A model generated the notes under the pieces. That model was not told where the DNA came from. It ran no database searches and worked only from the letters and a program-made list of their open reading frames with translations. Shown here piece by piece: positions 1,659-28,045 of a DNA stretch of 35,686 bases; position 1 is the stretch's first letter, and each line of letters begins with the position of its first letter. A program made the position numbers and the translations under genes. Origin of the DNA: a virus (Duplodnaviria; Heunggongvirae; Uroviricota; Caudoviricetes); IMG/VR virus record IMGVR_UViG_2923302340_000008, one strand, 5' to 3'.

Positions 1659-4130
1659 TTAAGAATCAGCCTGACTCGGGATCAGTTTTTGCCAGATAAC
1701 TGAAACGTATTTTGCCTGGTAACGGGCGTCATCAAGTGCATTATGGCGCTCACCTTCGAATGGAATAGCCGTTCTGGCATCGAAGTCTATGGCTTTCCCC
1801 AGCTCAACGATTGTGCGTACATCGCGATCGTTGTAGTAACGCCACGGACAGGGGATCCCCTGCCGTTCGTATGAACGGCGCAAAATCGTGTTGTCGAAGT
1901 TGGCTCCATTTCCCCAGACCTGAACAAAAAATTCACCGGAGTTTTCGTCGATAAATTCCCGCAATTGTAACAGTGCATCATCTAACGGGATTTCATCGGT
2001 CATAATGGCAGATTGCGCTTCGCGTGATTGCTTAAGCCACCATTTAATGGTGTCCCGATCAATGACTCCGCCAGCAGTTTCCAGATCGATAGTCTTACTA
2101 AATTCCGGTCCCATATCTCCGGTTTGCGGATCGAAAAATATTGCACCTATTGAGATGATCGGGGCATCAGGATTTTTTCCCATGGTTTCAAGGTCGATCA
2201 TTAGATGGTCACACGTCCTGCTGGTGGATGTGATTTCGTGATGACCGTTCACCTTAATTGAGTGATCTGCCGTCTCGCCAGTTTCATTATCGCTATCGTG
2301 ATGCTGATTGCCGCCAGTGTTCTCCTTGTGTGGATGTTCAGCGCCTTCCATTTCCTTCGGATCATCTTCCTGAACTTCAACCTGATACTCTTCATCGAAT
2401 GTTTCCTGGTATGTTGCGTCGCCCATCACCGCGCCACAATCAGGGCAGTTGCCGCCGCCGGTCTGACCGCAGGCGGTGCAGACTTTTTCCACTTCCTGTT
2501 GCGCCACTGGTTCAGGCTGTTTCGTTTCTGGCTCGTTTTGTAACGCATTTGGGCTGTTTTGTTCCGCTTTTTGGTAGTTCCGTTCCGATTCATGCTGGTT
2601 CTGGTTCACAGAATCGCGGGTCTGGATCCCCTTAACCCATTTCGGATCATTCGGGTCACTAATCCCTTCAACAAATTCACCACGTGATGCAGCAAGCAAC
2701 TTATCGGCGTCAGGCTGGCTGATATTGGCTGCCTGCATAATTTTGTTTACTTCGTCAGCGGTAACTTTTATCGGTTCTGGTTGTTCTGAATCTTCAGCGG
2801 TATCTACATTTTGCGGTAAGCCCGTGTATGTGCCATTTTTTCGGGCAAAATATTCTTCTTTAGTGATTTCAGTGGCGCCAGCAGCCAGTGCCTTATCCAG
2901 ACCAGAAAGTTTGTTTGCGCGACCGTATTTTTCTCCGTCCTTATCTGCGAAGAGGAAATAGAACGGCCCCTCACGCTCTACAGATGGTTCAGCTTCCGGC
3001 GCGGTTTCATTTTTTGGGATATCAGATACCTCAGTTTCCACTGCATCAGTTTGTGTTTCTGATGACTGGAGAACATCAACAGTGCCCAGGTCTGTTTCTT
3101 CATTCTCAAACACGCCCTTTGTCGTCAGGTATTCAGTAATGTATTTGTTCAGTGCCACAGGGTCTTTGTGAATGTCGATCGGACGTTCACGGACAAGGCC
3201 AAAAATAGTCTGGCGGTCGTAGCGAAGGGCATCAGGCTGTTTGCGCATTGATGCCGAGATACGCTTCCAGTCTTCACGGTCGTTGTCGATAACTTCATTT
3301 TTTGCCCAGCGATGGATGCTGCCGTCAATGTTTCCGGCATCCACATCACCAGGCCAGAGAGCGTAGGCCAGTTCGTCATCCAGTGTTTTCCATGTCTGCT
3401 TGTATTCGCGATGAATGGCAGCAATGACCGGGCTGAGTTTTCCTGTTGAATTTTCAGTGTGCTGTTGATTGGCTCTGGCGCGGGCGAGATCAACAACAGA
3501 CGTGTATTTTCCGGTTTCCTTGCGTTCACCTTCGCGACGTTTTTTCCAGATGCGCATCTCTGCCTGAATTTCGGGCCATTTGGCACCTGGCTTACATTTA
3601 TGCTTAACCCACCCGATGGCATGCAGCTTAAGCTCCGGATACATGGCGTTAACTTCTGGCATTTTCATCAACGCTTCAACGATATGTCCGTCGAATGTTG
3701 CCATGTCTTCCTGCAACAGTTCCTGCGCGCTAATCACCATATCAACGGTGATGTTTTCACATGTGTCGAACTTAACCATGACAGCGTTCTGTACTTCAGG
3801 GGCCAGCTTGTCAAAAGTGACGTTTATCGGATCTGATTCAGTCTCAACCGGGACAAAGGAAGCAGACTCCTCATCCCAGCGGTTTTCCTGCATATATTCA
3901 GCATCCCAGGAATCGAGGGCAGGGCGGGGTATGTCAGGTTTATCCTCGCAGACAATAAATTTATAAGCGCAGTCCTGAGCAGCCGTATAATGTTCCAGGA
4001 ACTGCCAGTGAAATTTTGCTCGAGCACGGCGTTCGTCGCCAGCTTCAATGGCTGTGGCTACAGCCACAGCGCCTTCTTCCCTTGTTGCCAGTTCGTCAGG
4101 AATAGCGGCGCAAATAAAGACTTTACTCAT
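1659..4130 (-). CDS. Phage exonuclease with C-terminal DnaQ-like (DEDDh) 3'-5' exonuclease domain and internal Cys4 zinc ribbon
   Basis: 823-aa ORF. The C-terminus carries DLETMG…GNGANFD…HNALDDARYQAKY motifs typical of DEDDh exonucleases. A CTACGQTGGGNCPDCG zinc-ribbon lies mid-protein. A GAGG RBS lies about 10 nt upstream. It occupies the exo position of the leftward early operon. Confidence 0.75.
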   Translation of the reverse strand: MSKVFICAAIPDELATREEGAVAVATAIEAGDERRARAKFHWQFLEHYTAAQDCAYKFIVCEDKPDIPRPALDSWDAEYMQENRWDEESASFVPVETESDPINVTFDKLAPEVQNAVMVKFDTCENITVDMVISAQELLQEDMATFDGHIVEALMKMPEVNAMYPELKLHAIGWVKHKCKPGAKWPEIQAEMRIWKKRREGERKETGKYTSVVDLARARANQQHTENSTGKLSPVIAAIHREYKQTWKTLDDELAYALWPGDVDAGNIDGSIHRWAKNEVIDNDREDWKRISASMRKQPDALRYDRQTIFGLVRERPIDIHKDPVALNKYITEYLTTKGVFENEETDLGTVDVLQSSETQTDAVETEVSDIPKNETAPEAEPSVEREGPFYFLFADKDGEKYGRANKLSGLDKALAAGATEITKEEYFARKNGTYTGLPQNVDTAEDSEQPEPIKVTADEVNKIMQAANISQPDADKLLAASRGEFVEGISDPNDPKWVKGIQTRDSVNQNQHESERNYQKAEQNSPNALQNEPETKQPEPVAQQEVEKVCTACGQTGGGNCPDCGAVMGDATYQETFDEEYQVEVQEDDPKEMEGAEHPHKENTGGNQHHDSDNETGETADHSIKVNGHHEITSTSRTCDHLMIDLETMGKNPDAPIISIGAIFFDPQTGDMGPEFSKTIDLETAGGVIDRDTIKWWLKQSREAQSAIMTDEIPLDDALLQLREFIDENSGEFFVQVWGNGANFDNTILRRSYERQGIPCPWRYYNDRDVRTIVELGKAIDFDARTAIPFEGERHNALDDARYQAKYVSVIWQKLIPSQADS

Positions 4131-4223
4131 TTTGTTTTAACCTCATGACAGATTTAAGGATGAACAAATCCCTGCCATTGCTGGCATATAAGAATGAAAC
4201 CGGATATTTATTACGGAACTGTT

Positions 4224-4415
4224 TTAAAGACCTGCCGGGATTTCGATATTATCCTGGTGAATAACTTTATCGACCGGGTAACAGTTACCGGGAATTTTCT
4301 GTTCGGTTGCTGCAGTCATACACTCCTGCATTGTCCTGTGAACACTGACTGCAATATCAACTGGCTCTCCGGAAACAAGAAAAACTGTCAGAACAAGCGC
4401 AAATGCTGAATTCAT
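4224..4415 (-). CDS. ydfD: YdfD-like small lysis protein with N-terminal hydrophobic segment
   Basis: 63-aa product (MNSAFALVLTVFLVSGEPVD…) immediately downstream of dicB, with its start overlapping the dicB stop. Length and position match Qin ydfD. Confidence 0.7.
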   Translation of the reverse strand: MNSAFALVLTVFLVSGEPVDIAVSVHRTMQECMTAATEQKIPGNCYPVDKVIHQDNIEIPAGL

Positions 4416-4600
4416 TGTGCACATCCTTTTGGCATCAGACGTAAACGAGCCAGCATTGAAACAATGCATATTTTATTTAATAGCTCCCGTTCTTGTTTTC
4501 TCTTGTTAATGGCATCTTCAGTAAATACAGGGTTACTGATAGTGACACCAATTTCAAAACAACCTTCAGACGTATTAACGTTTGGTAATAACGTTTTCAT
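4412..4600 (-). CDS. dicB: Cell division inhibitor DicB
   Basis: 62-aa product MKTLLPNVNTSEGCFEIGVTISNPVFTEDAINKRKQERELLNKICIVSMLARLRLMPKGCAQ matches recalled DicB nearly residue for residue. A GAGGA RBS lies 8 nt upstream. dicF lies immediately upstream. Confidence 0.85.
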   Translation of the reverse strand: MKTLLPNVNTSEGCFEIGVTISNPVFTEDAINKRKQERELLNKICIVSMLARLRLMPKGCAQ

Positions 4601-4771
4601 TATCGCGTCCTCAACAATGAATTTTGTGATGCAGTGCCTGGTGCCTCCAGGTGACGTTAACCAGTTAACAATTAACGCCGGATACAGAGAATCCACCCAT
4701 AACACTGTTTTTGGTTTTAACTGTTCCGCGTGCGCTTAGCCGCATTCACCGCATCACAAAATTCACTTTAA

Positions 4772-4827
4772 AAACGGCGGCAGAGCAGTCACGGAGTAAA
4801 ACTGATACCGCCAAACGTCACCAGAAA
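4772..4827 (-). ncRNA. dicF: DicF small regulatory RNA (ftsZ translation inhibitor)
   Basis: The reverse complement of 4776..4827 reads TTTCTGGTGACGTTTGGCGGTATCAGTTTTACTCCGTGACTGCTCTGCCGCC, matching the recalled about 53-nt DicF sequence. A GGCGG…CCGCC stem and a U-tract follow. It sits directly upstream of dicB as in Qin. Confidence 0.85.
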
Positions 4828-5102
4828 ATTGATAACAGAGGGCGTTGCAGCGGGGTTGTCACTTAAGCGTATGGTTAACCTGACAACTCGGTGTCCTCAA
4901 CGGGGAAGGAATAACCCCGCCATACTTACCGCCGCGCCATTTCGCGGGTTGCCACAACCGGAAGCGCACGGTCGAATTAAATTTAACGACACCGTACAGT
5001 GAGACGAACTTCGCCGTGCGCTTTCGTGTTGTGTGCCTGCTTTTAACCACGTCAGGCGAGGTGGTATCCTTCTTATCCCGAATAACCAAGAAGGAAATCT
5101 AT

Positions 5103-5303
5103 ATGACTAAAGAAGAATTTGTCTCTTATATTTTTGATAAAACGGTTGAAATGTATGCCGCTACTTACGGGTCCTGTAATCCTCTGAATAAACCAGAGGG
5201 GAAAGATGATTTCGACAAAATTTACCGCTTCTTGGAGGATCGCTATATCAAAAGGTTAGAGGACGCAGGGATCAAATCCCCAGTGAAGTCACCATTGTCC
5301 TGA
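5103..5303 (+). CDS. Hypothetical 66-aa protein encoded on the strand opposite to the dicB operon
   Basis: ATG preceded by a strong RBS (AAGAAGGAAAtctatATG). Codon composition is protein-like. No recognisable family. Confidence 0.4.
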   Translation: MTKEEFVSYIFDKTVEMYAATYGSCNPLNKPEGKDDFDKIYRFLEDRYIKRLEDAGIKSPVKSPLS

Positions 5304-7211: not shown

Positions 7212-8157
7212 ACGCCCACTGGTTATAAACACACAGCTTGCGATGAAGATTGGCTTAAATGAAGCCATTGTGTTGCAGCAGTTGCATTACTGGTTGAGAG
7301 ATACCAATTCCGGCATGGAATGTGATGGTGTTCGCTGGATTTACAACACAACGGAACAATGGCTGGAACAGTTCCCATTCTGGTCAGAGTCAACGTTAAA
7401 GCGCGCGTTTGCAAGTCTGAAAACGCTGGGGCTTTTGCGTTGTGAAAAGCTCAATAAATCAAAGCGCGATATGACCAATTTCTACACGATTAACTATGGG
7501 AGCGAGCTTTTAGATGATGGCAAATTGAGCGAATCCATCGGTTCAAAATGCGCCGCTCCATCAGGTCAAAATGACACGATGGAAGAGGTCAAAATGAAAC
7601 GCTCCATTGGTTCAAAACGACCCAATGTCATCGGGTCAAAATGGCCTGATGATCTTACAGAGAATACAACAGAGATTACTACAGAGAATAAAAACACTTT
7701 TCGTCCGGAAGCTTCGCAATCGGACCCGCAGACAGCTGAACAGAATTATTTAACCCAATATCCTGACGCGGTGGTTTTCAGTGCTAAAAAACGTCAGTGG
7801 GGGAATCAGGAGGATTTGGCGTGTGCGCAATGGATCTGGGCACGAATCGTGAGCCTTTACGAACAGGCCGCCAGTGATGATGGCGAGATCATGCGACCAA
7901 AAGAGCCTAACTGGACTGCCTGGGCTAATGACGTGCGCACAATGCGGATGCTGGATGGCAGAAGCCATAAACAAATTTGCGAAATGTTTGGTCGGGTTCA
8001 GCGAGATCCATTCTGGGTAAAAAACATCATGAGCCCTTCAAAGCTCCGCGAAAAATGGGATGAACTGGTCATTCGCCTGGGGCGTTCACCTGTACAGCGT
8101 TGTGTGAATCATATTTCTGAGCCGGACAGCGAAATTCCACCGGGATTCAGGGGGTAG
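7192..8157 (+). CDS. Replication initiation / replisome-organizer-like protein with N-terminal HTH
   Basis: 321-aa product. The N-terminal region (NTQLAMKIGLNEAIVLQQLHYWL) is HTH-like. Repeated SIGSK/VIGSK peptides are encoded by an internal iteron array, analogous to ori inside lambda O. Confidence 0.65.
   Translation: MSLLFAERPLVINTQLAMKIGLNEAIVLQQLHYWLRDTNSGMECDGVRWIYNTTEQWLEQFPFWSESTLKRAFASLKTLGLLRCEKLNKSKRDMTNFYTINYGSELLDDGKLSESIGSKCAAPSGQNDTMEEVKMKRSIGSKRPNVIGSKWPDDLTENTTEITTENKNTFRPEASQSDPQTAEQNYLTQYPDAVVFSAKKRQWGNQEDLACAQWIWARIVSLYEQAASDDGEIMRPKEPNWTAWANDVRTMRMLDGRSHKQICEMFGRVQRDPFWVKNIMSPSKLREKWDELVIRLGRSPVQRCVNHISEPDSEIPPGFRG
7537..7644. repeat. Iteron array (candidate replication origin) inside the replication initiator gene
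   Basis: Five copies of a GG(T)TCAAAA(T/C)G motif spaced about 23-24 bp apart, at 7540, 7564, 7587, 7609 and 7633. Confidence 0.6.
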
Positions 8158-8159
8158 GT

Positions 8160-8372
8160 ATGCACAGCAGTAATCAACAGGCCGCAATCCAGCATTTGCT
8201 GGAGAACGGGGAAGCCACGTTCCGGGAGCTGGCTGATGCTCTTGGTGTGACCAACAAGAAAATTCAAAACCTGCTCCAGAACATACAGCGGTACGGGCAG
8301 CTTGTGCGGGAGGGGGAAAAATATCGGCTGGTACCGAACTGGCAGGAAAAATCTGCATTGCAAAAGCGGTAA
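8160..8372 (+). CDS. Small winged-helix/HTH-like protein
   Basis: 70-aa ORF with an ATG 2 bp after the replication gene stop and a G-rich RBS. Motif FRELADALGVTNKKIQNL is HTH-like. Confidence 0.5.
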   Translation: MHSSNQQAAIQHLLENGEATFRELADALGVTNKKIQNLLQNIQRYGQLVREGEKYRLVPNWQEKSALQKR

Positions 8373-8621
8373 CCGAAAGGTCAACAGCGTCGAAACAGGC
8401 TGCGGCGCAGGAATGTCGCCGGAACAGCAACGGATACCAGAGACAAAAAATTTTGGGGAGTAGTCGGGGAGTCGGTAACAGAGCTTAGGTAGAGCAATTG
8501 ATGCCAACTGACCTCTAACGTTTTGTTTCATGTTGTCATTATGTTTCAATTTAGTGGAATTGTTAATAAAGTGTTTTTATAATTAAAAACCAAACTACAG
8601 ATAGCATGGAGCTTTTGTTCA

Positions 8622-10178
8622 ATGAATGCCTATAAATTCAGAAATAATGATGAGATTGGAAAATTAGAGGCGGAAACTGATTCTTATCTTGATGCTTGTT
8701 TTTATGAGTCCAATGTTTTTAAAGGTATTGTGAATTTTGACTCTACTGAGAAGAATCCTGATTTTACAAGAAGAATTATTGTTGGAAGAACAGGAAGCGG
8801 TAAGTCTGCGTTGCTTAAAAAAATATTAGACAAAGGAAATATTAAGCTGCATGACACAATAGAGGCAGAAAATACGATATTTGAACATATTAATAACAAT
8901 GTGTTTATATCTGATTTGATCTCGAAAGGGATAGATTTACGTGGGTTTTATAAATCGTTATGGCTGCATGTATTACTTATGAAAGTTATACCAGCCGTTT
9001 ATCGTTCTTCCTATCAAAGCTTTTTTGAGGAAATTAAAGATCTTATTGGTGGTAAGAAGAAACCGTATAAACCAGAAGTTGCGAATGATTATATTGAACA
9101 ATTTAAAGAAAATTTCTTCAATGATAAAGCGCTCATTGAAATAAGTAACAAGCTTGAAAGTGATTTGTCATTCAAACTCGGAAATTCCGCTGTTGGTGTG
9201 GGTGGTAAAATATCTAATTCTGATACAGCCAAAATACAATCAGAAACTTCAAGTTATGTGAGTCGTGAACTTCTTTTTAAACAAAAAGAACTTATTAAAA
9301 TACTTAAAGAGGAGTTCGCTGACTCAAACCAGGTTAGAATAGTAATCAGTATCGATGATTTAGATAAATCTTGGTTAAGCACGAGCGCCATCAGATATGA
9401 CTTTATTAATGCTCTTCTTGAGGCCTTTCGAGAATTATTAGATATAAAGTCGGTTAAGGTTCTGATATCAATAAGAACAGATATTTTAATGGGAATTTAT
9501 AAAAGTAGTTTAAGGCAGGATGAGAAAGATCAATCTTTAATATATTCCATATCATGGAATAAAACGGAAATAAGAGAGATTATTGATGCTAGAATTAACC
9601 ATTTGGTTAAAAATAGATATCAATCAAATAAGTCTGTATTAATGAAGGATATTTTTAATTTTACAGTTGAAGGTATTGGAGCAGATGATTATATCCTTGA
9701 CAGAACAATGCTTAGGCCTAGAGATGCAATTAATTTCGTAAATATATGTCTTTCTGAGTGCGATGGTATGGTTAACATGAATGAAAATATTGTGTTAATT
9801 GCCGAAGAGAAATTTTATTCGTCCAGAAAGAGAGCTTTGGTTACAGAATGGAAAAGCATATATCCGTTTATCGAAGAATATTTGGATGTGCTTTCCTTGA
9901 TTTCATTTTCTGATTTTACAGTCTCAAACATAGGACAAGCAGTAAAAGATGATATATCGCAGCATTTACTTGATAGATTGACTGTAGTTAAAGAGGATGA
10001 TCAACATACAAAAATATTGATGAATTTTGAGGAGTTACTTAAAGTCTGGTTCGTCGTAGGCGTGGTTGGCATAAGGAAAACAGTATCTTTAATTTTATAT
10101 TCATCTTTTGATAAACCTAATTTGGATATTACTGATATGAAGAGAGATTTTGTAATACATCCGTTGTTTGATAGGTAA
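8622..10178 (+). CDS. AT-rich P-loop NTPase of unassigned family (candidate defence or abortive-infection protein)
   Basis: 518-aa ORF. Walker A is IIVGRTGSGKSALLKKI near residue 55. Walker B-like VRIVISIDDLDKSW lies near residue 243. Candidate sensor and arginine motifs are ISIRTD and LRPRD. Base composition is markedly AT-rich versus flanks. A TATAAT hexamer sits at 8578..8583 and a GGAG RBS upstream. Confidence 0.75.
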   Translation: MNAYKFRNNDEIGKLEAETDSYLDACFYESNVFKGIVNFDSTEKNPDFTRRIIVGRTGSGKSALLKKILDKGNIKLHDTIEAENTIFEHINNNVFISDLISKGIDLRGFYKSLWLHVLLMKVIPAVYRSSYQSFFEEIKDLIGGKKKPYKPEVANDYIEQFKENFFNDKALIEISNKLESDLSFKLGNSAVGVGGKISNSDTAKIQSETSSYVSRELLFKQKELIKILKEEFADSNQVRIVISIDDLDKSWLSTSAIRYDFINALLEAFRELLDIKSVKVLISIRTDILMGIYKSSLRQDEKDQSLIYSISWNKTEIREIIDARINHLVKNRYQSNKSVLMKDIFNFTVEGIGADDYILDRTMLRPRDAINFVNICLSECDGMVNMNENIVLIAEEKFYSSRKRALVTEWKSIYPFIEEYLDVLSLISFSDFTVSNIGQAVKDDISQHLLDRLTVVKEDDQHTKILMNFEELLKVWFVVGVVGIRKTVSLILYSSFDKPNLDITDMKRDFVIHPLFDR

Positions 10179-10408
10179 TAGCAATGTGAATATGTTGAGA
10201 CTACTGGAAAAGCTATAACTCCTTTAGTAAAGTTTCCGTGGGTGCTTGAGGCTATCTGTCTCAGGCATGAACACCAAAGGCAGATAGAGAAAAGCCCCAG
10301 TTAACATTACGCGTCCTGCAAGACGCTTAACATTAATCTGAGGCCAATTTCATGCTAGACACATGTAGGTTAGCCTCTTACGTGCCGAAAGGCAAGGAGA
10401 AGCAGGCT

Positions 10409-12440: not shown

Positions 12441-12457
12441 TTTTGTGGAGTAAGTTG

Positions 12458-12835
12458 ATGCGTGATATTCAGATGGTTCTTGAGCGTTGGGGGGCATGGG
12501 CGGCTAATAATCATGAAGATGTGACCTGGTCGTCCATTGCCGCCGGTTTTAAGGGATTAATTCCTTCAAAAGTAAGATCTCGTCCGCAATGCTGTGACGA
12601 TGACGCGATGATCATTTGTGAATGTATGGCTCGCCTGAAAAAAAACAACAGCGATTTACATGATTTATTGGTGGACTATTATGTCGGCGGCATGACTTTT
12701 ATGGCGCTTGCACGTAAGCATGGGCGATCTGATTGTTGGGTTGGCAGGATGCTCCAGAAAGCTGAGGGCGTAGTGGAGGGCATGCTGATGGTGTTGGATC
12801 TCCGATTGGAGATGGATGCTGATTGTTCGAAATAA
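12458..12835 (+). CDS. Putative late-gene antiterminator Q
   Basis: 125-aa ORF ([21 protein letters not shown]…) with a Cys cluster. It sits at the Q position and is followed by a promoter-like sequence and a strong terminator. Confidence 0.55.
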
Positions 12836-12990: not shown

Positions 12991-13515
12991 TTATTGTTTA
13001 ACCCATAATAGTTCATTGACATTGAATCCCAACTTTTGAGCGGTACGCACATAGTCTGCTTTTACATTATCTGGAATAGTTTGGGTCCTTGCCAGAATCC
13101 ATAGGTATTCTCTGTTCGGACCACTGACAAGAGCATACTTATACTCATCATCCAGCTTGATTACATTATAGCCACCATAGAAGGGGCCAAAAAACGAAAC
13201 TTTCAACGCTGCAGTTTTAGTATCTCCAGTAAAGTATGCTTTACCTTCGCTCTCGCTCCATTTGTTTTTCGTTGGATCGTATCCACGGTTAAGTACGCGA
13301 ATCCCTCCGTCGTTCCGTTTTTCATAAGTAGCGCTGACTTGTTCCAGACCACGTTCGAACCAGTTCTCGAGGCGAGCTATTTCATACCATTTTCCGAGGT
13401 AGCGGTTGGCGTCAAAATTTGTAATCGGCTGCACACCTTTAGGTGGTGTCGGGGCCTTACATGCTATAAGAGTGAAAGAGAGTGCAATGCCAGTCAACAC
13501 AGGCCATAACTTCAT
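12991..13515 (-). CDS. blc: Blc-like outer-membrane lipocalin lipoprotein (moron)
   Basis: 174-aa ORF with a signal peptide and lipobox (LIAC). Lipocalin-like motifs (NFDANRYLGKWYEIARLENWFERG) are present. Confidence 0.75.
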   Translation of the reverse strand: MKLWPVLTGIALSFTLIACKAPTPPKGVQPITNFDANRYLGKWYEIARLENWFERGLEQVSATYEKRNDGGIRVLNRGYDPTKNKWSESEGKAYFTGDTKTAALKVSFFGPFYGGYNVIKLDDEYKYALVSGPNREYLWILARTQTIPDNVKADYVRTAQKLGFNVNELLWVKQ

Positions 13516-13707
13516 AATAAATCCTGTACTTTTGATAGTTGAGAGTAAGTATGAAAGATAGATGAGTACGACCGATCACTTAAAGAACTTTCCTACTATA
13601 TTAGGAATAGTCCATAACAGAAAAATTGTCAGTGATGAAGCCAGAAAGGCAATTTAGTCCGTGCATTACAAAGTTTATGTGTTAATGAATTAGTCAAGGG
13701 GGAGGAA

Positions 13708-14667
13708 ATGATAAAAAAACCTGTGATTGGGATCAGCGGTTGTTTGGGCGGTTCTGCTGTTCGTTTTGATGGTGGTCACAAAAGAGATGACTTTTTAATG
13801 GACAAATTAGTGGAATGGGTAACATTCAGACCAGTATGTCCGGAAATGGCTATAGGGCTGCCAGTTCCGCGTCCTGCTCTACGACTTGTGCGCTCGAAGC
13901 AAGGAAATATACGGATGTGTTTCAGCCACGACCAGAATGAGGATGTGACAGAGAGAATGACAGAGTTTAGTCGTTCTTATATGGACAAATTAAAGGATGT
14001 ATCGGGGTTTGTGGTTTGTGCTAAATCTCCCAGCTGTGGCATGGAGCGCGTGCGTGTCTATGATGAAAATGGTAATCGAGGTCGTAAAGATGGAGTGGGA
14101 CTATTTACGAGCACTTTGATGGAAAAGTTTTCCTGGCTACCGGTTGAAGAGGATGGGCGATTACATGATCCAGTGCTTCGTGAGAATTTTATTGAAAGAG
14201 TTTTTGCTTTGCATGAGCTCAATCATCTTTACAAGGAGAAATTATCAAGAAGAGAGTTATTAGCTTTTCATAGTCGTTATAAGCTTCAGTTGTTGGCGCA
14301 TAGCCAGGCAGGCTATAAAGATATGGGACCATTTGTGGCTGCAATACACGAGTGGGCGGACCTTGAATCATACTTTGAGGTGTATCGTGATAATCTGATG
14401 GCGATTCTCAGAAAACCAGCATCACGTAAAAATCACACGAATGTGCTGATGCATATACAGGGGTATTTTAGTAATTACTTAAGTACACGCCAGCGTAAAG
14501 AGTTGAGCGAGGTTATACTTAACTATCGCTTTGGCACATTGCCTCTTCTTGCGCCGTTGACTCTGCTGAAGCATTATCTGGGTGAGTATCCTAATGATTA
14601 CTTGCTTACACAGAATTACTTCGATCCCTATCCGGAAGAACTGGCTCTAAGACTGATGGTGAATTAA
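13708..14667 (+). CDS. DUF523/DUF1722 fusion protein (TudS-like Cys-rich N-domain with YbgA-like C-domain)
   Basis: 319-aa ORF. The N-terminus GISGCLGGSAVRFDGGHK plus further conserved Cys residues suggest DUF523. The C-terminal half is helical, as in DUF1722. This assignment is from memory. Confidence 0.55.
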   Translation: MIKKPVIGISGCLGGSAVRFDGGHKRDDFLMDKLVEWVTFRPVCPEMAIGLPVPRPALRLVRSKQGNIRMCFSHDQNEDVTERMTEFSRSYMDKLKDVSGFVVCAKSPSCGMERVRVYDENGNRGRKDGVGLFTSTLMEKFSWLPVEEDGRLHDPVLRENFIERVFALHELNHLYKEKLSRRELLAFHSRYKLQLLAHSQAGYKDMGPFVAAIHEWADLESYFEVYRDNLMAILRKPASRKNHTNVLMHIQGYFSNYLSTRQRKELSEVILNYRFGTLPLLAPLTLLKHYLGEYPNDYLLTQNYFDPYPEELALRLMVN

Positions 14668-14759
14668 CTGTATGCGATATCATCTGAAAGTGATGAGTTC
14701 CTGTATGCAGGATATTTACAATCGTAAAAACTACGCTATGATGCCCATTGGATTTGCCC

Positions 14760-15665
14760 CTATATTTCCAGACATCTGTTATCACTTAACCCATTACAGG
14801 CCCGCTGCCGCAGATATTCCCGTGGCGAGCGATAACCCAGCGCACTATGCGGATGCCATTCGTTATAATGCTCGAACGCCTCTGCAAGGTTCTTTGCTGC
14901 CGTTAACCCGTCTGGTTTGGGCATGATACTGATGTAGTCACGCTTTATCGTTTTCACGAAGCTCTCTGCTATTCCGTTACTCTCCGGACTCCGCACCGCC
15001 GTGTTCTTCGGTTCAAGTCCCAACATCCGGGCGAACTGGCGTGTTTCATTAGCCCGGTAGCATGAACCATTATCCGTCAGCCACTCCACTGGAGACGACG
15101 GAAGATCGTTGCCGAAGCGGCGTTCCACCGCTCCCAGCATGACGTCCTGTACTGTTTCACTGTTGAAGCCGCCAGTAGTCACCGCCCAGTGCAGTGCCTC
15201 ACGATCACTGCAGTCCAGCGCGAACGTGACACGCAGTCTCTCTCCGTTATCACAGCAGAACTCGAACCCGTCAGAGCACCATCGCTGATTGCTTTCTTTC
15301 ACGGCCACTCTGCCTGTATGTGCCCGTTTCGATGGCGGTACAGCAGGTTTTCGCTCAAGCAACAGCGCATTCTGGCGCATGATCCGGTAAACACGTTTGG
15401 CATTGATCGCAGGCATACCATCAAGTTCTGCCTGTCTGCGAAGCAGCGCCCATACCCGACGATAACCATACGTGGGCAGCTCTCCGATAACATGGTGTAT
15501 ACGGAGAAGCACATCCGTATCATCAGTGTGACGACTGCGGCGGCCATCCATCCAGTCATCGGTTCGTCTGAGAATGACGTGCAACTGCGCACGCGACACC
15601 CGGAGACAACGGCTGACTAAGCTTACTCCCCATCCCCGGGCAATAAGGGCGCGTGCGCTATCCAC
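14760..15665 (-). CDS. insD: IS2 transposase InsD (OrfB)
   Basis: 301-aa product [23 protein letters not shown]… matches recalled IS2 InsD. DDE integrase core. Confidence 0.9.
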
Positions 15666-15988
15666 TTTTTTGCCCGTCCATATTCAACGGCTTCTTTGAG
15701 GAGTTCATTTTCCATCGTTTTCTTGCCGAGCAGGCGCTGGAGTTCTTTAATCTGCTTCATGGCGGCAGCAAGTTCAGAGGCAGGAACAACCTGTTCTCCG
15801 GCGGCGACAGCAGTAAGACTTCCTTCCTGGTATTGCTTACGCCAGAGAAATAACTGGCTGGCTGCTACACCATGTTGCCGGGCAACGAGGGAGACCGTCA
15901 TCCCCGGTTCAAAGCTCTGCTGAACAATTGCGATCTTTTCCTGTGTGGTACGCCGTCTGCGTTTCTCCGGCCCTAAGACATCAATCAT
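15623..15988 (-). CDS. insC: IS2 InsC (OrfA)
   Basis: 121-aa product [24 protein letters not shown]… matches recalled IS2 InsC. It overlaps the insD start, as expected for a frameshift fusion. Confidence 0.85.
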
Positions 15989-16400
15989 CTGTTCTCCAAT
16001 GACTAGTCTAAAAACTAGTATTAAGACTATCACTTATTTAAGTGATACTGGTTGTCTGGAGATTCAGGGGGCCAGTCTACCCATAGTGTCAGTTTGTATA
16101 AAAATCCTGTTCACGCTAAAGAAAACATTGAGATGCAATTTAATGTTGGTAAACATACCAGCCCCAAAAGATTTTATTCAATCTGTTTTTATATGAAGAT
16201 ATTTCAAGTGAATATTAAGAGCATATAATATTATTATTGCACGCAGCTATTATAATATAACAGATTAGTTTAATGATTTGTTTTTTGTGAGTTAAACACA
16301 TGGTTTTATAGTTGTGATGCAATGAGATTTTCCTTATTGTTGAACTGGCGAATATTGATTTTCCACCTATACTTACCTGGTGTAACCCCAATGATATCAG

Positions 16401-17123
16401 GTGGATAATATGCCATACATATGTTCTATCATTTTGGTGTTGAACTCGTTTGGTGTCCGAATTGGTAAAGAAGATATTTTGTTTAAAAAAGGAAATGCTG
16501 TCCTCATTGAATACAATTTAAAAGATCTTTTTTCGTCAAATACAGATCATCTAATGATCGTAGATGTTGAGGAGAAAACAGTTAATGATTTCTTTAAAAA
16601 CTACACACTCTCACCTTTTTCTGTAAGAAGGTTTTATCCGTCATACTTGATAGTAGAATGTGAAGATTTTTCATTGTTAAGGAACTTGGTTGCATGCTTG
16701 AATTGTGATAGCAAAACCGTGGATGTAGTTAGAAATCAAATATCACTTGCATGTCTTGCTGTCTTATCTTCAGAGAAAATAGTGCAAAGTTTTTTGTTCG
16801 GAAGTCTTAATAGCTTAGGTTGTAAAGTTAAGGCTATTATTCACTCGGATATCTCAGCGTCATGGAGACTTTGTGATATATCTTCAAGATTATATATGAG
16901 CGAGAGTTTGTTAAAAAGAAAATTAAAAGACGAAGGATTATCGTTTAGTAAATTAATTCTTGAAGAACGAATGATGATGGCGCAAAGATTATTGATCTAC
17001 AGTAACCATACTGTCGGCAAGGTGGCGGGAATATGCGGGTATGACAATGCATCATATTTTGTAAGTGTTTTTAGAGGATATTTTGGTGTGCCTCCGCACC
17101 AATATTTATCAAGATTTTCTTAG
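16401..17123 (+). CDS. AraC/XylS-family transcriptional regulator (AppY/PatE-like)
   Basis: 240-aa ORF in a strongly AT-rich segment. The C-terminus carries an AraC-type HTH (…KVAGICGYDNASYFVSVFRGYFGVPPHQY). Confidence 0.75.
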   Translation: MDNMPYICSIILVLNSFGVRIGKEDILFKKGNAVLIEYNLKDLFSSNTDHLMIVDVEEKTVNDFFKNYTLSPFSVRRFYPSYLIVECEDFSLLRNLVACLNCDSKTVDVVRNQISLACLAVLSSEKIVQSFLFGSLNSLGCKVKAIIHSDISASWRLCDISSRLYMSESLLKRKLKDEGLSFSKLILEERMMMAQRLLIYSNHTVGKVAGICGYDNASYFVSVFRGYFGVPPHQYLSRFS

Positions 17124-17313
17124 AAGATATGATGTGATGGCATTTTATAAAGTTATTTTTTGAAGTGTAAGATTATACGATATTTTTAGCTACGCCAGAA
17201 TAATTGCTGGCGTTTTTCTTTTTGAATAGATGTTCGGGCCTTACGCTAATGTAACTTCTTTCCTTCTTCGAACCAAACCGTGTACACCATCCGTTATCTG
17301 CGGAGGTGAGGCT

Positions 17314-17529
17314 ATGAAATCCATGGATAAGTTAACAACGGGCATCGCCTACAGCACCTCTGCAGGCAGTGCTGGCTACTGGTTTTTACAGTTGCTCGAT
17401 AAAGTCACGCCCTCACAGTGGGCGGCAATAGGTGTATTGGGTAGTCTGGTATTTGGCATGCCGACGTATCTGACAAACCTTTATTTCAAGATTAAAGAAG
17501 ACAGGCGTAAGGTTGCGAGAAGAGAGTAA
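17314..17529 (+). CDS. Class II holin (S21-like pinholin)
   Basis: 71-aa product with dual start MKSM and motif [15 protein letters not shown]…[13 protein letters not shown]…[15 protein letters not shown] resembling recalled S21. GGAGG RBS. Confidence 0.8.
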
Positions 17530-17533
17530 TCCA

Positions 17534-18085
17534 ATGACTCAAGACTATGAACTGGTTGTGAAAGGAGTTCGCAATTTTGAGAATAAAGTGGCGGTAACTG
17601 TAGCCTTACGGGACAAAAAACACTTTGACGGTGAAATTTTTGACCTGGACATCTCGCTGGACCGTGTTGAAGGTGCCGCGCTGGAGTTTTATGAGGCAGC
17701 AGCCAGAAGGAGCATCAGACAGGTCTTCCTGGATGTTGCTGCCGGGTTATGTGAAGGGGATGAGCAGTCGCCGGAAAAGCGCCCCATAATTTTAGAGGCG
17801 CAGAATGTGTGGATAACCTACAAAGGAAAGCTACCGGGAAGAATTACTGGTTCTCTGAAGACGCCACCGACGGCATTGCGGTCAGAAAAAGATGATATTG
17901 AATCGCCCATTGAAAAACTGGAGGGCAGCGTCGCTGATCTGAATAAAAAATTGTCGGTGCTGATTCCTTCTGAAGATGAAAAAAAACGCCGCGATGAGCA
18001 GTTTGCGGCGTTTTACGATTATTGCATTGAAGTTACTCGCAGGAATTTTGTGAAGATTTTTGAGGAGGGTAAATCTCTTCAGTAA
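17534..18085 (+). CDS. Hypothetical protein between holin and endolysin
   Basis: 183-aa acidic ORF at the position Qin ydfR occupies. Weak RBS. Family unknown. Confidence 0.45.
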   Translation: MTQDYELVVKGVRNFENKVAVTVALRDKKHFDGEIFDLDISLDRVEGAALEFYEAAARRSIRQVFLDVAAGLCEGDEQSPEKRPIILEAQNVWITYKGKLPGRITGSLKTPPTALRSEKDDIESPIEKLEGSVADLNKKLSVLIPSEDEKKRRDEQFAAFYDYCIEVTRRNFVKIFEEGKSLQ

Positions 18086-24506: not shown

Positions 24507-24715
24507 ATCAGAATGATATTGAAGCCATGATTCAGCGTTATACGGAAGCTGAAATGGCGGCGCTGGACGGAAAATCCGTCACTTTTAATGGTCAGCAGAT
24601 GACCATGGAAAACTTATCTGAGATCCGGCAGGGGCGGCAGGAGTGGGAGCGCCGCCTTGCGGCTCTGATTACACGACGACGGGGGCATCCCGGGTACCGG
24701 CTGGCGAGGTTCTGA
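24503..24715 (+). CDS. Head-tail joining protein gpW-like
   Basis: 70-aa product whose C-terminus (…ITRRRGHPGYRL…) resembles recalled lambda gpW. GGAGG RBS. Its stop overlaps the portal start (TGATG). Confidence 0.65.
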   Translation: MNQNDIEAMIQRYTEAEMAALDGKSVTFNGQQMTMENLSEIRQGRQEWERRLAALITRRRGHPGYRLARF

Positions 24716-26223
24716 TGGCAATTCTTGATGATGTGATTGGCGTTTTTTCACCAGGATGGAAAGCGGCAAGGCTGCGTTCCCGAGCGGTGATCCAGGCTTA
24801 TGAGGCCGTAAAAACGACGCGGACACACAAAGCCCGACGGGAGAACCGAACTGCCGACCAGTTAAGCCAGTACGGGGCCGTGTCGTTACGTGAGCAGGCC
24901 CGTTACCTTGATAACAACCACGATCTGGTCATTGGTGTATTTGACAAGCTGGAAGAACGGGTGGTGGGGAAAAACGGGATTATTGTCGAGCCACATCCGG
25001 TATTACGCAATGGTGCCATTGCCCGTGACCTGGCAGCGGAGATACGTACCCGATGGAGTGAATGGTCTGTCAGTCCGGAAGTCACCGGGCAGTTTACCCG
25101 TCCGATGCTGGAACGTCTGATGCTGCGTACCTGGCTGCGCGATGGTGAGGTGTTTGCCCAGATGGTTTCCGGGCGCATAAACAGCCTGACGCCTTCTGCC
25201 GGTGTTCATTTCTGGCTGGAGGCGCTCGAGCCGGACTTTATTCCCATGACCAGTGATGAGAGCAACAGGCTGAATCAGGGCGTGTTTGTTGATGACTGGG
25301 GGCGTCCCGAAAAATATCTGGTGTATAAAAGTCGTCCTGTATCCGGACGGCAGATGGAAACCAAAGAAGTGGATGCAGAGCGAATGCTGCATCTTAAATT
25401 TGTTCGCCGTCTGCACCAGATGCGCGGGACGTCTTTATTGTCCGGTGTGCTGATCCGCCTCAGCGCCCTGAAAGAGTATGAAGATTCTGAGCTGACTGCA
25501 GCAAGGATCGCCGCTGCTCTGGGGATGTACATCCGGAAAGGCGACGGACAGAGCTATGAAACGGATGGTAATGACAGCAAGGAGAATGAACGCGAGCTTA
25601 CCATTCAGCCAGGCATTATTTACGACGATCTGAAACCCGGCGAAGAAATCGGAATGGTGAAGTCGGATCGTCCCAATCCTAACCTTGAAACTTTTCGTAA
25701 TGGTCAGTTGCGTGCCGTGGCGGCGGGCAGTCGTCTGAGTTTTTCCAGTACGGCACGCAACTATAACGGCACTTACAGCGCCCAGCGTCAGGAACTGGTT
25801 GAGTCTACTGATGGCTACCTGATCCTGCAGGACTGGTTTATTGGTGCCGTCACCCGCCCGATGTATCGTGCCTGGCTGAAACAGGCTGTGGCATCCGGTG
25901 TTATCAGGCTACCCCGCGATCTTGACCGTTCTTCACTGTATACCGCGGTGTATTCCGGACCAGTGATGCCGTGGATTGACCCTGTTAAGGAGGCTGAGGC
26001 CTGGAAAATCCAGATTCGTGGTGGAGCGGCGACAGAATCAGACTGGGTACGTGCTGGTGGTCGTAATCCGGATGATGTCAAACGTCGGCGCAAGGCCGAA
26101 ATTGATGAAAACCGCAAGCTGGATCTGGTATTTGATACCGATCCGGCCAGTGATAAAGGAGGCAGCAGTGCCGCAACGAAACGACAGGAGCCGCAGCACA
26201 CCGACGACCAGTCCGAAGAATAA
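24715..26223 (+). CDS. Portal protein (gpB-like)
   Basis: 502-aa ORF following gpW with translational coupling. Size and position match lambda-type portal. Confidence 0.8.
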   Translation: MAILDDVIGVFSPGWKAARLRSRAVIQAYEAVKTTRTHKARRENRTADQLSQYGAVSLREQARYLDNNHDLVIGVFDKLEERVVGKNGIIVEPHPVLRNGAIARDLAAEIRTRWSEWSVSPEVTGQFTRPMLERLMLRTWLRDGEVFAQMVSGRINSLTPSAGVHFWLEALEPDFIPMTSDESNRLNQGVFVDDWGRPEKYLVYKSRPVSGRQMETKEVDAERMLHLKFVRRLHQMRGTSLLSGVLIRLSALKEYEDSELTAARIAAALGMYIRKGDGQSYETDGNDSKENERELTIQPGIIYDDLKPGEEIGMVKSDRPNPNLETFRNGQLRAVAAGSRLSFSSTARNYNGTYSAQRQELVESTDGYLILQDWFIGAVTRPMYRAWLKQAVASGVIRLPRDLDRSSLYTAVYSGPVMPWIDPVKEAEAWKIQIRGGAATESDWVRAGGRNPDDVKRRRKAEIDENRKLDLVFDTDPASDKGGSSAATKRQEPQHTDDQSEE

Positions 26224-26236
26224 TTCCTGGTTCAGG

Positions 26237-28045
<1,809 letters not shown>

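Follow-up and report, generated by a model that had tools for sequence, protein, structure and literature searches.

Insertion sequences that settle a few hundred base pairs upstream of a regulatory gene raise the questions of whether the element arrived cleanly, whether it could still move and whether it changes the expression of its neighbours. Here these questions concern an element within a 35,686-nt stretch of viral DNA, which was analysed at its full length and is called the window below. The element spans 14749-16079 on the minus strand (1331 bp). On direct reading of the plus strand, its edges were found as TGGATTTGCC... from 14749 and ...GGCCAGTCTA up to 16079, and the same limits were read as TGGATTTGCCCCTATATTTCC... 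at 14749 and ...GGGGGCCAGTCTA at 16079, in agreement with the initial annotation, which had placed IS2 termini at these two positions and had proposed a BLASTN comparison with IS2 as a check. Using megablast against 5426 complete E. coli genomes, the 1331-bp element showed 99.9% full-length identity to features annotated 'IS3-like element IS2 family transposase', and an IS2 copy at ≥80% length coverage was present in 4058 of the 5426 genomes. Compared with the reference copy IS2A of E. coli K-12 MG1655 (NC_000913.3, 381260-382590), 1325 of the 1331 bases were identical (99.5%); the six point differences, including one in the left inverted repeat (IRL) and one that is non-synonymous in OrfB, set the window copy apart from IS2A, whereas the length of 1331 bp, the IRL and right inverted repeat (IRR) termini, the orfA/orfB layout, the A6G motif and a 5-bp target duplication are common to both. 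By these sequence features, the element is IS2, a member of the IS2 group of the IS3 family.

The target duplication was read directly as CCCAT at 14744-14748 (left copy) and CCCAT at 16080-16084 (right copy), and re-inspection confirmed the pentamers to be identical, as had been claimed for them. The identity stops at 5 bp, the sixth base being different on either side; for any given 5-mer, recurrence at a fixed position has a chance of about 1 in 1024. The reading of the locus in which we have high confidence is that a complete, apparently transposition-competent IS2 entered an intergenic spacer by simple insertion, probably recently and in a single lineage, interrupting no gene and likely having little or no effect on its neighbours.

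The host element, judged from the annotation of the PSS-11 prophage and from family searches, is a defective Qin-like lambdoid prophage of E. coli. An integrase gene (20-1315) is followed by early genes and then by the gene for the Q antiterminator (12443-12835; PF06530), and a Blc-type lipocalin gene (12991-13515, minus strand) lies between Q and a YbgA-family gene. Past an AraC-family regulator gene, the order continues with a P21-type holin (PF04971), a DUF1327/YdfR gene, lysozyme and Rz, after which come cold-shock genes, terminase and portal (24643-26223). The IS2 is thus placed between the Q antiterminator and the holin, in what had been described as the cargo region. Farther to the right, the window carries an ISEc31-like IS, also of the IS3 family (26331-27590; inverted repeats at 26331-26357 and 27564-27590; OrfB at 26340-27386, minus strand), which lies at a deletion junction, with the portal gene and the start of the prohead protease gene on its left and a remnant of the J tail-tip protein on its right, followed by Lom, tail fibre, Tfa, a Pin-type invertase and a host MFS transporter gene. 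The prophage lacks its capsid and tail genes, the loss lying at the ISEc31-like IS, and is therefore defective.

The immediate neighbours of IS2 were those named in the initial annotation, a DUF523/DUF1722 gene on one side and an AraC-family regulator on the other. The first (13708-14667, plus strand) matched Pfam PF04463 (2-thiouracil desulfurase, the former DUF523) and PF08349 (DUF1722), its homologues are annotated 'YbgA family protein', and its stop codon ends 81 bp ahead of the first IS2 base (14749). The second (16410-17123, plus strand; Pfam HTH_18 and HTH_AraC) is an intact gene for a YdeO/GadX-like regulator; its ATG at 16410, which is the start annotated in the homologues, lies 330 bp from the IS2 end at 16079, and a GTG at 16401 lies 321 bp from it. 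The end nearest to the regulator is the canonical left end, IRL, and the distance to the GTG agrees with the approximately 320 bp originally given for the left end. Both open reading frames flanking IS2 are full length and no gene is interrupted. The GC content was 53% in IS2, 42% in the 500 bp to its left and 30% in the right flank. The best NCBIfam similarities of the regulator were to YdeO, GadX and HilD, with YdeO at the top and all of them below the cut-offs. Homologues at 98% identity are abundant in E. coli, and a homology search for a specific name returned only generic 'helix-turn-helix/AraC family' labels among them. The prophage regulators AppY, PatE, PsrA and PsrB act on acid-resistance genes, and PatE, PsrA and PsrB are prophage-borne, AraC-like acid-resistance/T3SS regulators of EHEC (PMC10877973); the regulator in the window falls into the same broad class, a likeness shown at the level of the HTH_18/HTH_AraC class only. 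PatE, PsrA and PsrB correspond to Z0321, Z1789 and Z2104, and regulation of gadE/hdeA is a mark of their group. If IS2 does alter the YdeO/GadX-like regulator, acid-resistance regulation could change (compare PatE and PsrB; PMC10877973).

Such an alteration, in which IS2 would change the expression of the AraC-like regulator either by cutting off an upstream promoter or read-through from the YbgA-family gene, or by breaking an H-NS-type silenced AT-rich region, is in our judgement unlikely, although it has some evidence in its favour. On its upstream side, the regulator is 321-330 bp from the site, the DNA there has 30% GC, and insertions of IS1 and IS5 are known to act by breaking silenced AT-rich regions, at bgl and flhDC. 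With regard to orientation, the regulator lies on the IRL side of IS2 and the 3' end of the YbgA-family gene on the IRR side. The transposase promoter in IRL is weak and reads inward, and it is IRR that contains the outward-reading -35 of the minicircle junction promoter (Pjunc) (PMC3219604). With IRL toward the regulator and IRR away from it, no known IS2 promoter element therefore reads toward the regulator, and the lack of a known outward promoter in the end that faces it (PMC3219604) counts against altered expression. The IRR in the window holds the same outward-reading -35 region as Pjunc (PMC3219604) but, unlike in IS2 hybrid promoters, its direction is away from the regulator and antisense into the YbgA-family gene at its 3' end. 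Reading outward from IRR into the left flank (...TGGAAATATAGGGGCAAATCCA|ATGGGCATCATAGCG), no -10-like hexamer was found at the required spacing, and on the minus strand, where IRR abuts the flank (...CCA|ATGGGCATCA), no TAnnnT hexamer was found 16-18 bp downstream. Since IRR reads away and lacks a -10-like hexamer at the spacing, no hybrid promoter is predicted for the regulator. From the right flank into IRL, the only candidate for a hybrid promoter was TTTATA-17-TAGACT (8/12), which fell below the scan threshold and was rejected. On the evidence of its orientation, promoter donation by IS2 to the regulator is unlikely.

A consensus promoter scan of 14500-16500 returned three sites, compared with 2.9 expected from shuffles, and this chance level of promoter-like matches also weighs against an effect on the regulator. 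The first of them, a putative promoter with the sequence TTTACA-16-TATGAT (10/12; 14715-14742, plus strand), is a point in favour of altered expression, as this sigma-70-like match ends 2 bp ahead of the duplicated CCCAT, and a transcript from the putative site would, given this position just before the duplication, now enter IS2. The second, TTGTGA-16-TATAGT (9/12; 16285-16312, plus strand; likewise putative), lies approximately 100 bp upstream of the regulator, is not split off by IS2 and so, as the proximal candidate, stays linked to the gene, which speaks against altered expression. The third (16432-16405, minus strand), which is directed away from the regulator gene, has no bearing here. 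When the spacers of 20 sequences were aligned, comprising the reconstructed empty site of the window and 19 loci (16 distinct), both plus-strand candidates were conserved in diverged copies; this conservation is uninformative, because the entire spacer is at least 90% conserved. It had also been suggested that read-through of the late operon might be altered. In lambda, late transcripts that start at pR' are expected to continue past terminators under Q antitermination. The concern can be given little weight here and would matter little for phage production, since the prophage is defective, with its head and tail genes deleted. The neighbouring genes are most likely affected little or not at all by IS2, with the reservation that it sits 2 bp after a 10/12 promoter-like match and divides AT-rich spacer DNA of a type that H-NS often silences.

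The same module has been entered repeatedly in other strains. In Qin/DLP12-like prophages (loci L002-L007 and L010-L021), 18 further distinct IS2 or IS2-like sites were mapped to window-equivalent positions 13182-17543, in both orientations, and all 18 insertions carried perfect 5-bp duplications, making the footprint in the window a typical one. Five of these sites fall in the same spacer (14668-72, 14707-11, 16115-19, 16283-87 and 16328-32), one further site lies at the start codon of the regulator and four are inside the regulator gene. Two of the spacer sites, GCAGG at 14707-14711 and GCTAA at 16115-16119, are within 40 bp of the window site in empty-site coordinates. The other module insertions (e.g., those of E. 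coli 042, CUVET21-147 and 2 HS-C) resemble the window copy in the module entered, in being IS2 or a 95.6% variant and in their 5-bp duplications, but each is at a different pentamer, and some lie inside the lipocalin, YbgA-family or AraC-family genes, unlike the copy in the window, which is intergenic. At the pentamer GCCAG (window-equivalent 13640-13644), insertions were found in L010 and L015 (1513-2843 in each), in the same orientation and in two unrelated strains, one element being IS2 (99.6% identical to the window copy) and the other a 95.5% IS2-like variant; the shared pentamer could mean that one hot pentamer was used twice independently, or that one IS copy was converted by another. 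In raw genome counts, which include clonal genomes, about 54 of about 1087 genomes that carry the locus have IS2 or an IS2-like element close to it, where a uniform genome-wide density of IS2 would predict about 5, by arithmetic from genome counts that ignores phylogeny and relaxed selection in prophages. Such relaxed selection is the simplest explanation of repeated hits in this non-essential, AT-rich module.

An orientation bias was considered, given that the first 14 sites from other strains were all in the orientation of the window, and was rejected as a search artefact: the search joins same-strand pieces only, and an IS2(-) query hence retrieves only IS2(-) insertions at high coverage. 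The query in the real orientation retrieved 33 genomes, about 15 of them clonal and of the E. coli 042 type, and when the IS in the query was flipped in silico as a control, 21 genomes carrying the opposite orientation were recovered (four mapped). There is no orientation bias, since the flipped control retrieves insertions in the opposite orientation.

The repeated hits bear on the regulator as well. Six distinct IS2 or IS2-like sites, the one in the window included, fall in a spacer of approximately 400 bp, with a seventh at the start codon of the regulator, and this can be taken in favour of altered expression. Six of 19 sites in a spacer that makes up 9% of the module corresponds to a nominal binomial p of about 0.006; the clustering was not relied on, as the spacer formed the centre of the queries and the genomes lack phylogenetic independence, and the bias introduced by a spacer-centred query reduces what the estimate can lend to an effect on expression. 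The regulator gene itself is interrupted by IS2 or the IS2-like variant in L004 (E. coli 042, 3784-5114), L011, L016 and L020, and it is frameshifted in the annotations of L003, L013 and L017. That it is IS-interrupted or frameshifted in several strains suggests that the AraC-family regulator is often dispensable. The IS2 insertions inside the gene look like neutral decay rather than selected activation, again counting against an effect of the window copy on expression. A stronger version, according to which the repeated spacer insertions are selected events that re-tune the regulator through de-silencing or uncoupling from upstream transcription, with the window copy as one such allele, appears quite improbable to us.

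With regard to how IS2 arrived, it could in principle mark or have mediated a rearrangement, namely an adjacent deletion, an inversion between IS2 copies or a composite transposon. IS elements are frequent at rearrangement junctions, and the second IS of the window, the ISEc31-like element, does occupy a deletion junction, in contrast with the clean insertion of IS2. The empty site was reconstructed by joining 14144-14748 to 16085-16684 with one CCCAT kept (1205 bp), and it was identical at 1205 of 1205 positions in nine complete E. coli chromosomes. In strain PSS-11, the identical empty allele occupies 552680-553884 of NZ_AP027694.1. Among the complete E. coli genomes, 874 matched the empty site at ≥80% coverage, in every case flanked by genes annotated 'YbgA family protein' and 'helix-turn-helix/AraC family', and CCCAT is single in the empty site of the other genomes. 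The comparison with related prophages that the initial annotation had proposed was carried out by aligning the window with the PSS-11 prophage, and collinearity broke exactly at 14748/16080, coincident with the ends of the IS, with a reference overlap of 5 bp. The identical 5-bp repeats, together with flanks that are found joined at 1205/1205 in other genomes, refute a rearrangement, for which we see next to no probability left, and the window moreover carries only one IS2 copy. Since the joined flanks with a single CCCAT match nine chromosomes at every position, and the PSS-11 prophage is collinear, the simple transposition without rearrangement that had been proposed from the repeats alone is upheld: as read from the sequence, the insertion was simple, with no deletion and no inversion.

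The anatomy of the copy is that of a complete element. Its termini read TAGACTGG... and ...CAAATCCA, with IRL ending in TA-3' and IRR in CA-3' (a feature of IS2; PMC3219604). IRR comprises 41 bp (14749-14789, minus strand) and IRL 42 bp (16038-16079, minus strand), the terminus of IRL reading TAGACT, which is TA-3' on the complementary strand, and a 33-nt inverted repeat that pairs both IS2 ends was detected. IRL is one base off K-12 IS2A (G for A at IS position 32), a change shared by other natural IS2 copies. The gene orfA (insC, 121 aa; 15623-15988, minus strand) encodes a protein identical to K-12 InsC and matched 'IS2 repressor TnpA' (NCBIfam NF006928) with 276 bits against a cut-off of 229, over positions 1-121 of 121. 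The gene orfB (insD, 301 aa; 14760-15665, minus strand) encodes the catalytic part of the transposase and matched 'IS2 transposase TnpB' (NCBIfam NF006918) with 723 bits against a cut-off of 597, over positions 1-301 of 301. In the overlap of orfA and orfB lies the slippery heptamer AAAAAAG (15665-15671, minus strand), the A6G motif of the programmed -1 frameshift that yields OrfAB, which has been described for IS2 (PMC3219604); when a -1 slip at A6G was simulated, the 409-aa OrfAB fusion stayed open. All the sequence features that define IS2 (PMC3219604) are present in the window copy. The alternatives of a decayed IS2 relic and of a related but distinct IS3-family element are refuted and scarcely worth entertaining, for although IS2-like variants of approximately 95.6% identity occur at nearby sites in other strains (L002, L014, L015, L016 and L019), the window copy is 99.5% identical to K-12 IS2A, with open reading frames and intact ends.

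The complete IS2 is thus apparently transposition-competent, with one reservation. OrfB differs from that of K-12 by a single substitution, C153S, located at window position 15209 (IS2 position 871) in the motif FALDC[C/S]DREAL. The substitution was seen in none of the 20 other IS2 or IS2-like copies examined and is a private change, which makes the activity of the window copy uncertain. By analogy with established IS2 biology, OrfAB, produced by the -1 frameshift at A6G, would have cleaved IRR, and the IRR end would have been joined next to IRL to form a figure-of-eight and then a minicircle. The minicircle would have integrated through staggered cuts 5 bp apart, with gap repair after integration duplicating CCCAT, and IS2 would in this way have entered the non-coding spacer of the Q-to-lysis cargo module of a defective Qin-like lambdoid E. 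coli prophage.

The distribution of this particular insertion was also investigated. No single-piece match to the filled site was found among the 5426 complete E. coli genomes, the left junction, searched as an exact 30-nt sequence, was absent from the GTDB representative genomes, IMG/VR and the JGI metagenomes, and none of the 18 other mapped IS2 or IS2-like sites coincided with the CCCAT of the window. Owing to the absence of both the filled site and the exact junction from the collections searched, the insertion appears lineage-private and is probably recent, and the perfect CCCAT duplication fits a recent insertion.

This is a textbook IS2 insertion of an already known kind, with its exact boundaries confirmed. 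IS2 is among the best-studied insertion sequences, and clean hits of this kind, in non-coding spacers of cryptic prophages, belong to the routine flux of genomes. For annotation, the value lies in exact IS boundaries and in flanking genes that are known to be intact, and the strain-specific junction is usable as a typing or PCR marker.

One further gene was observed in the early region of the prophage. It encodes a 518-aa P-loop ATPase (8622-10178) of the Sll1717 family/KAP NTPase type, with a weak match to an 'anti-phage protein' model, and it lies in a stretch (approximately 8150-10240) that has no alignment to the PSS-11 prophage. From these matches, the ATPase may be a prophage-borne defence gene.
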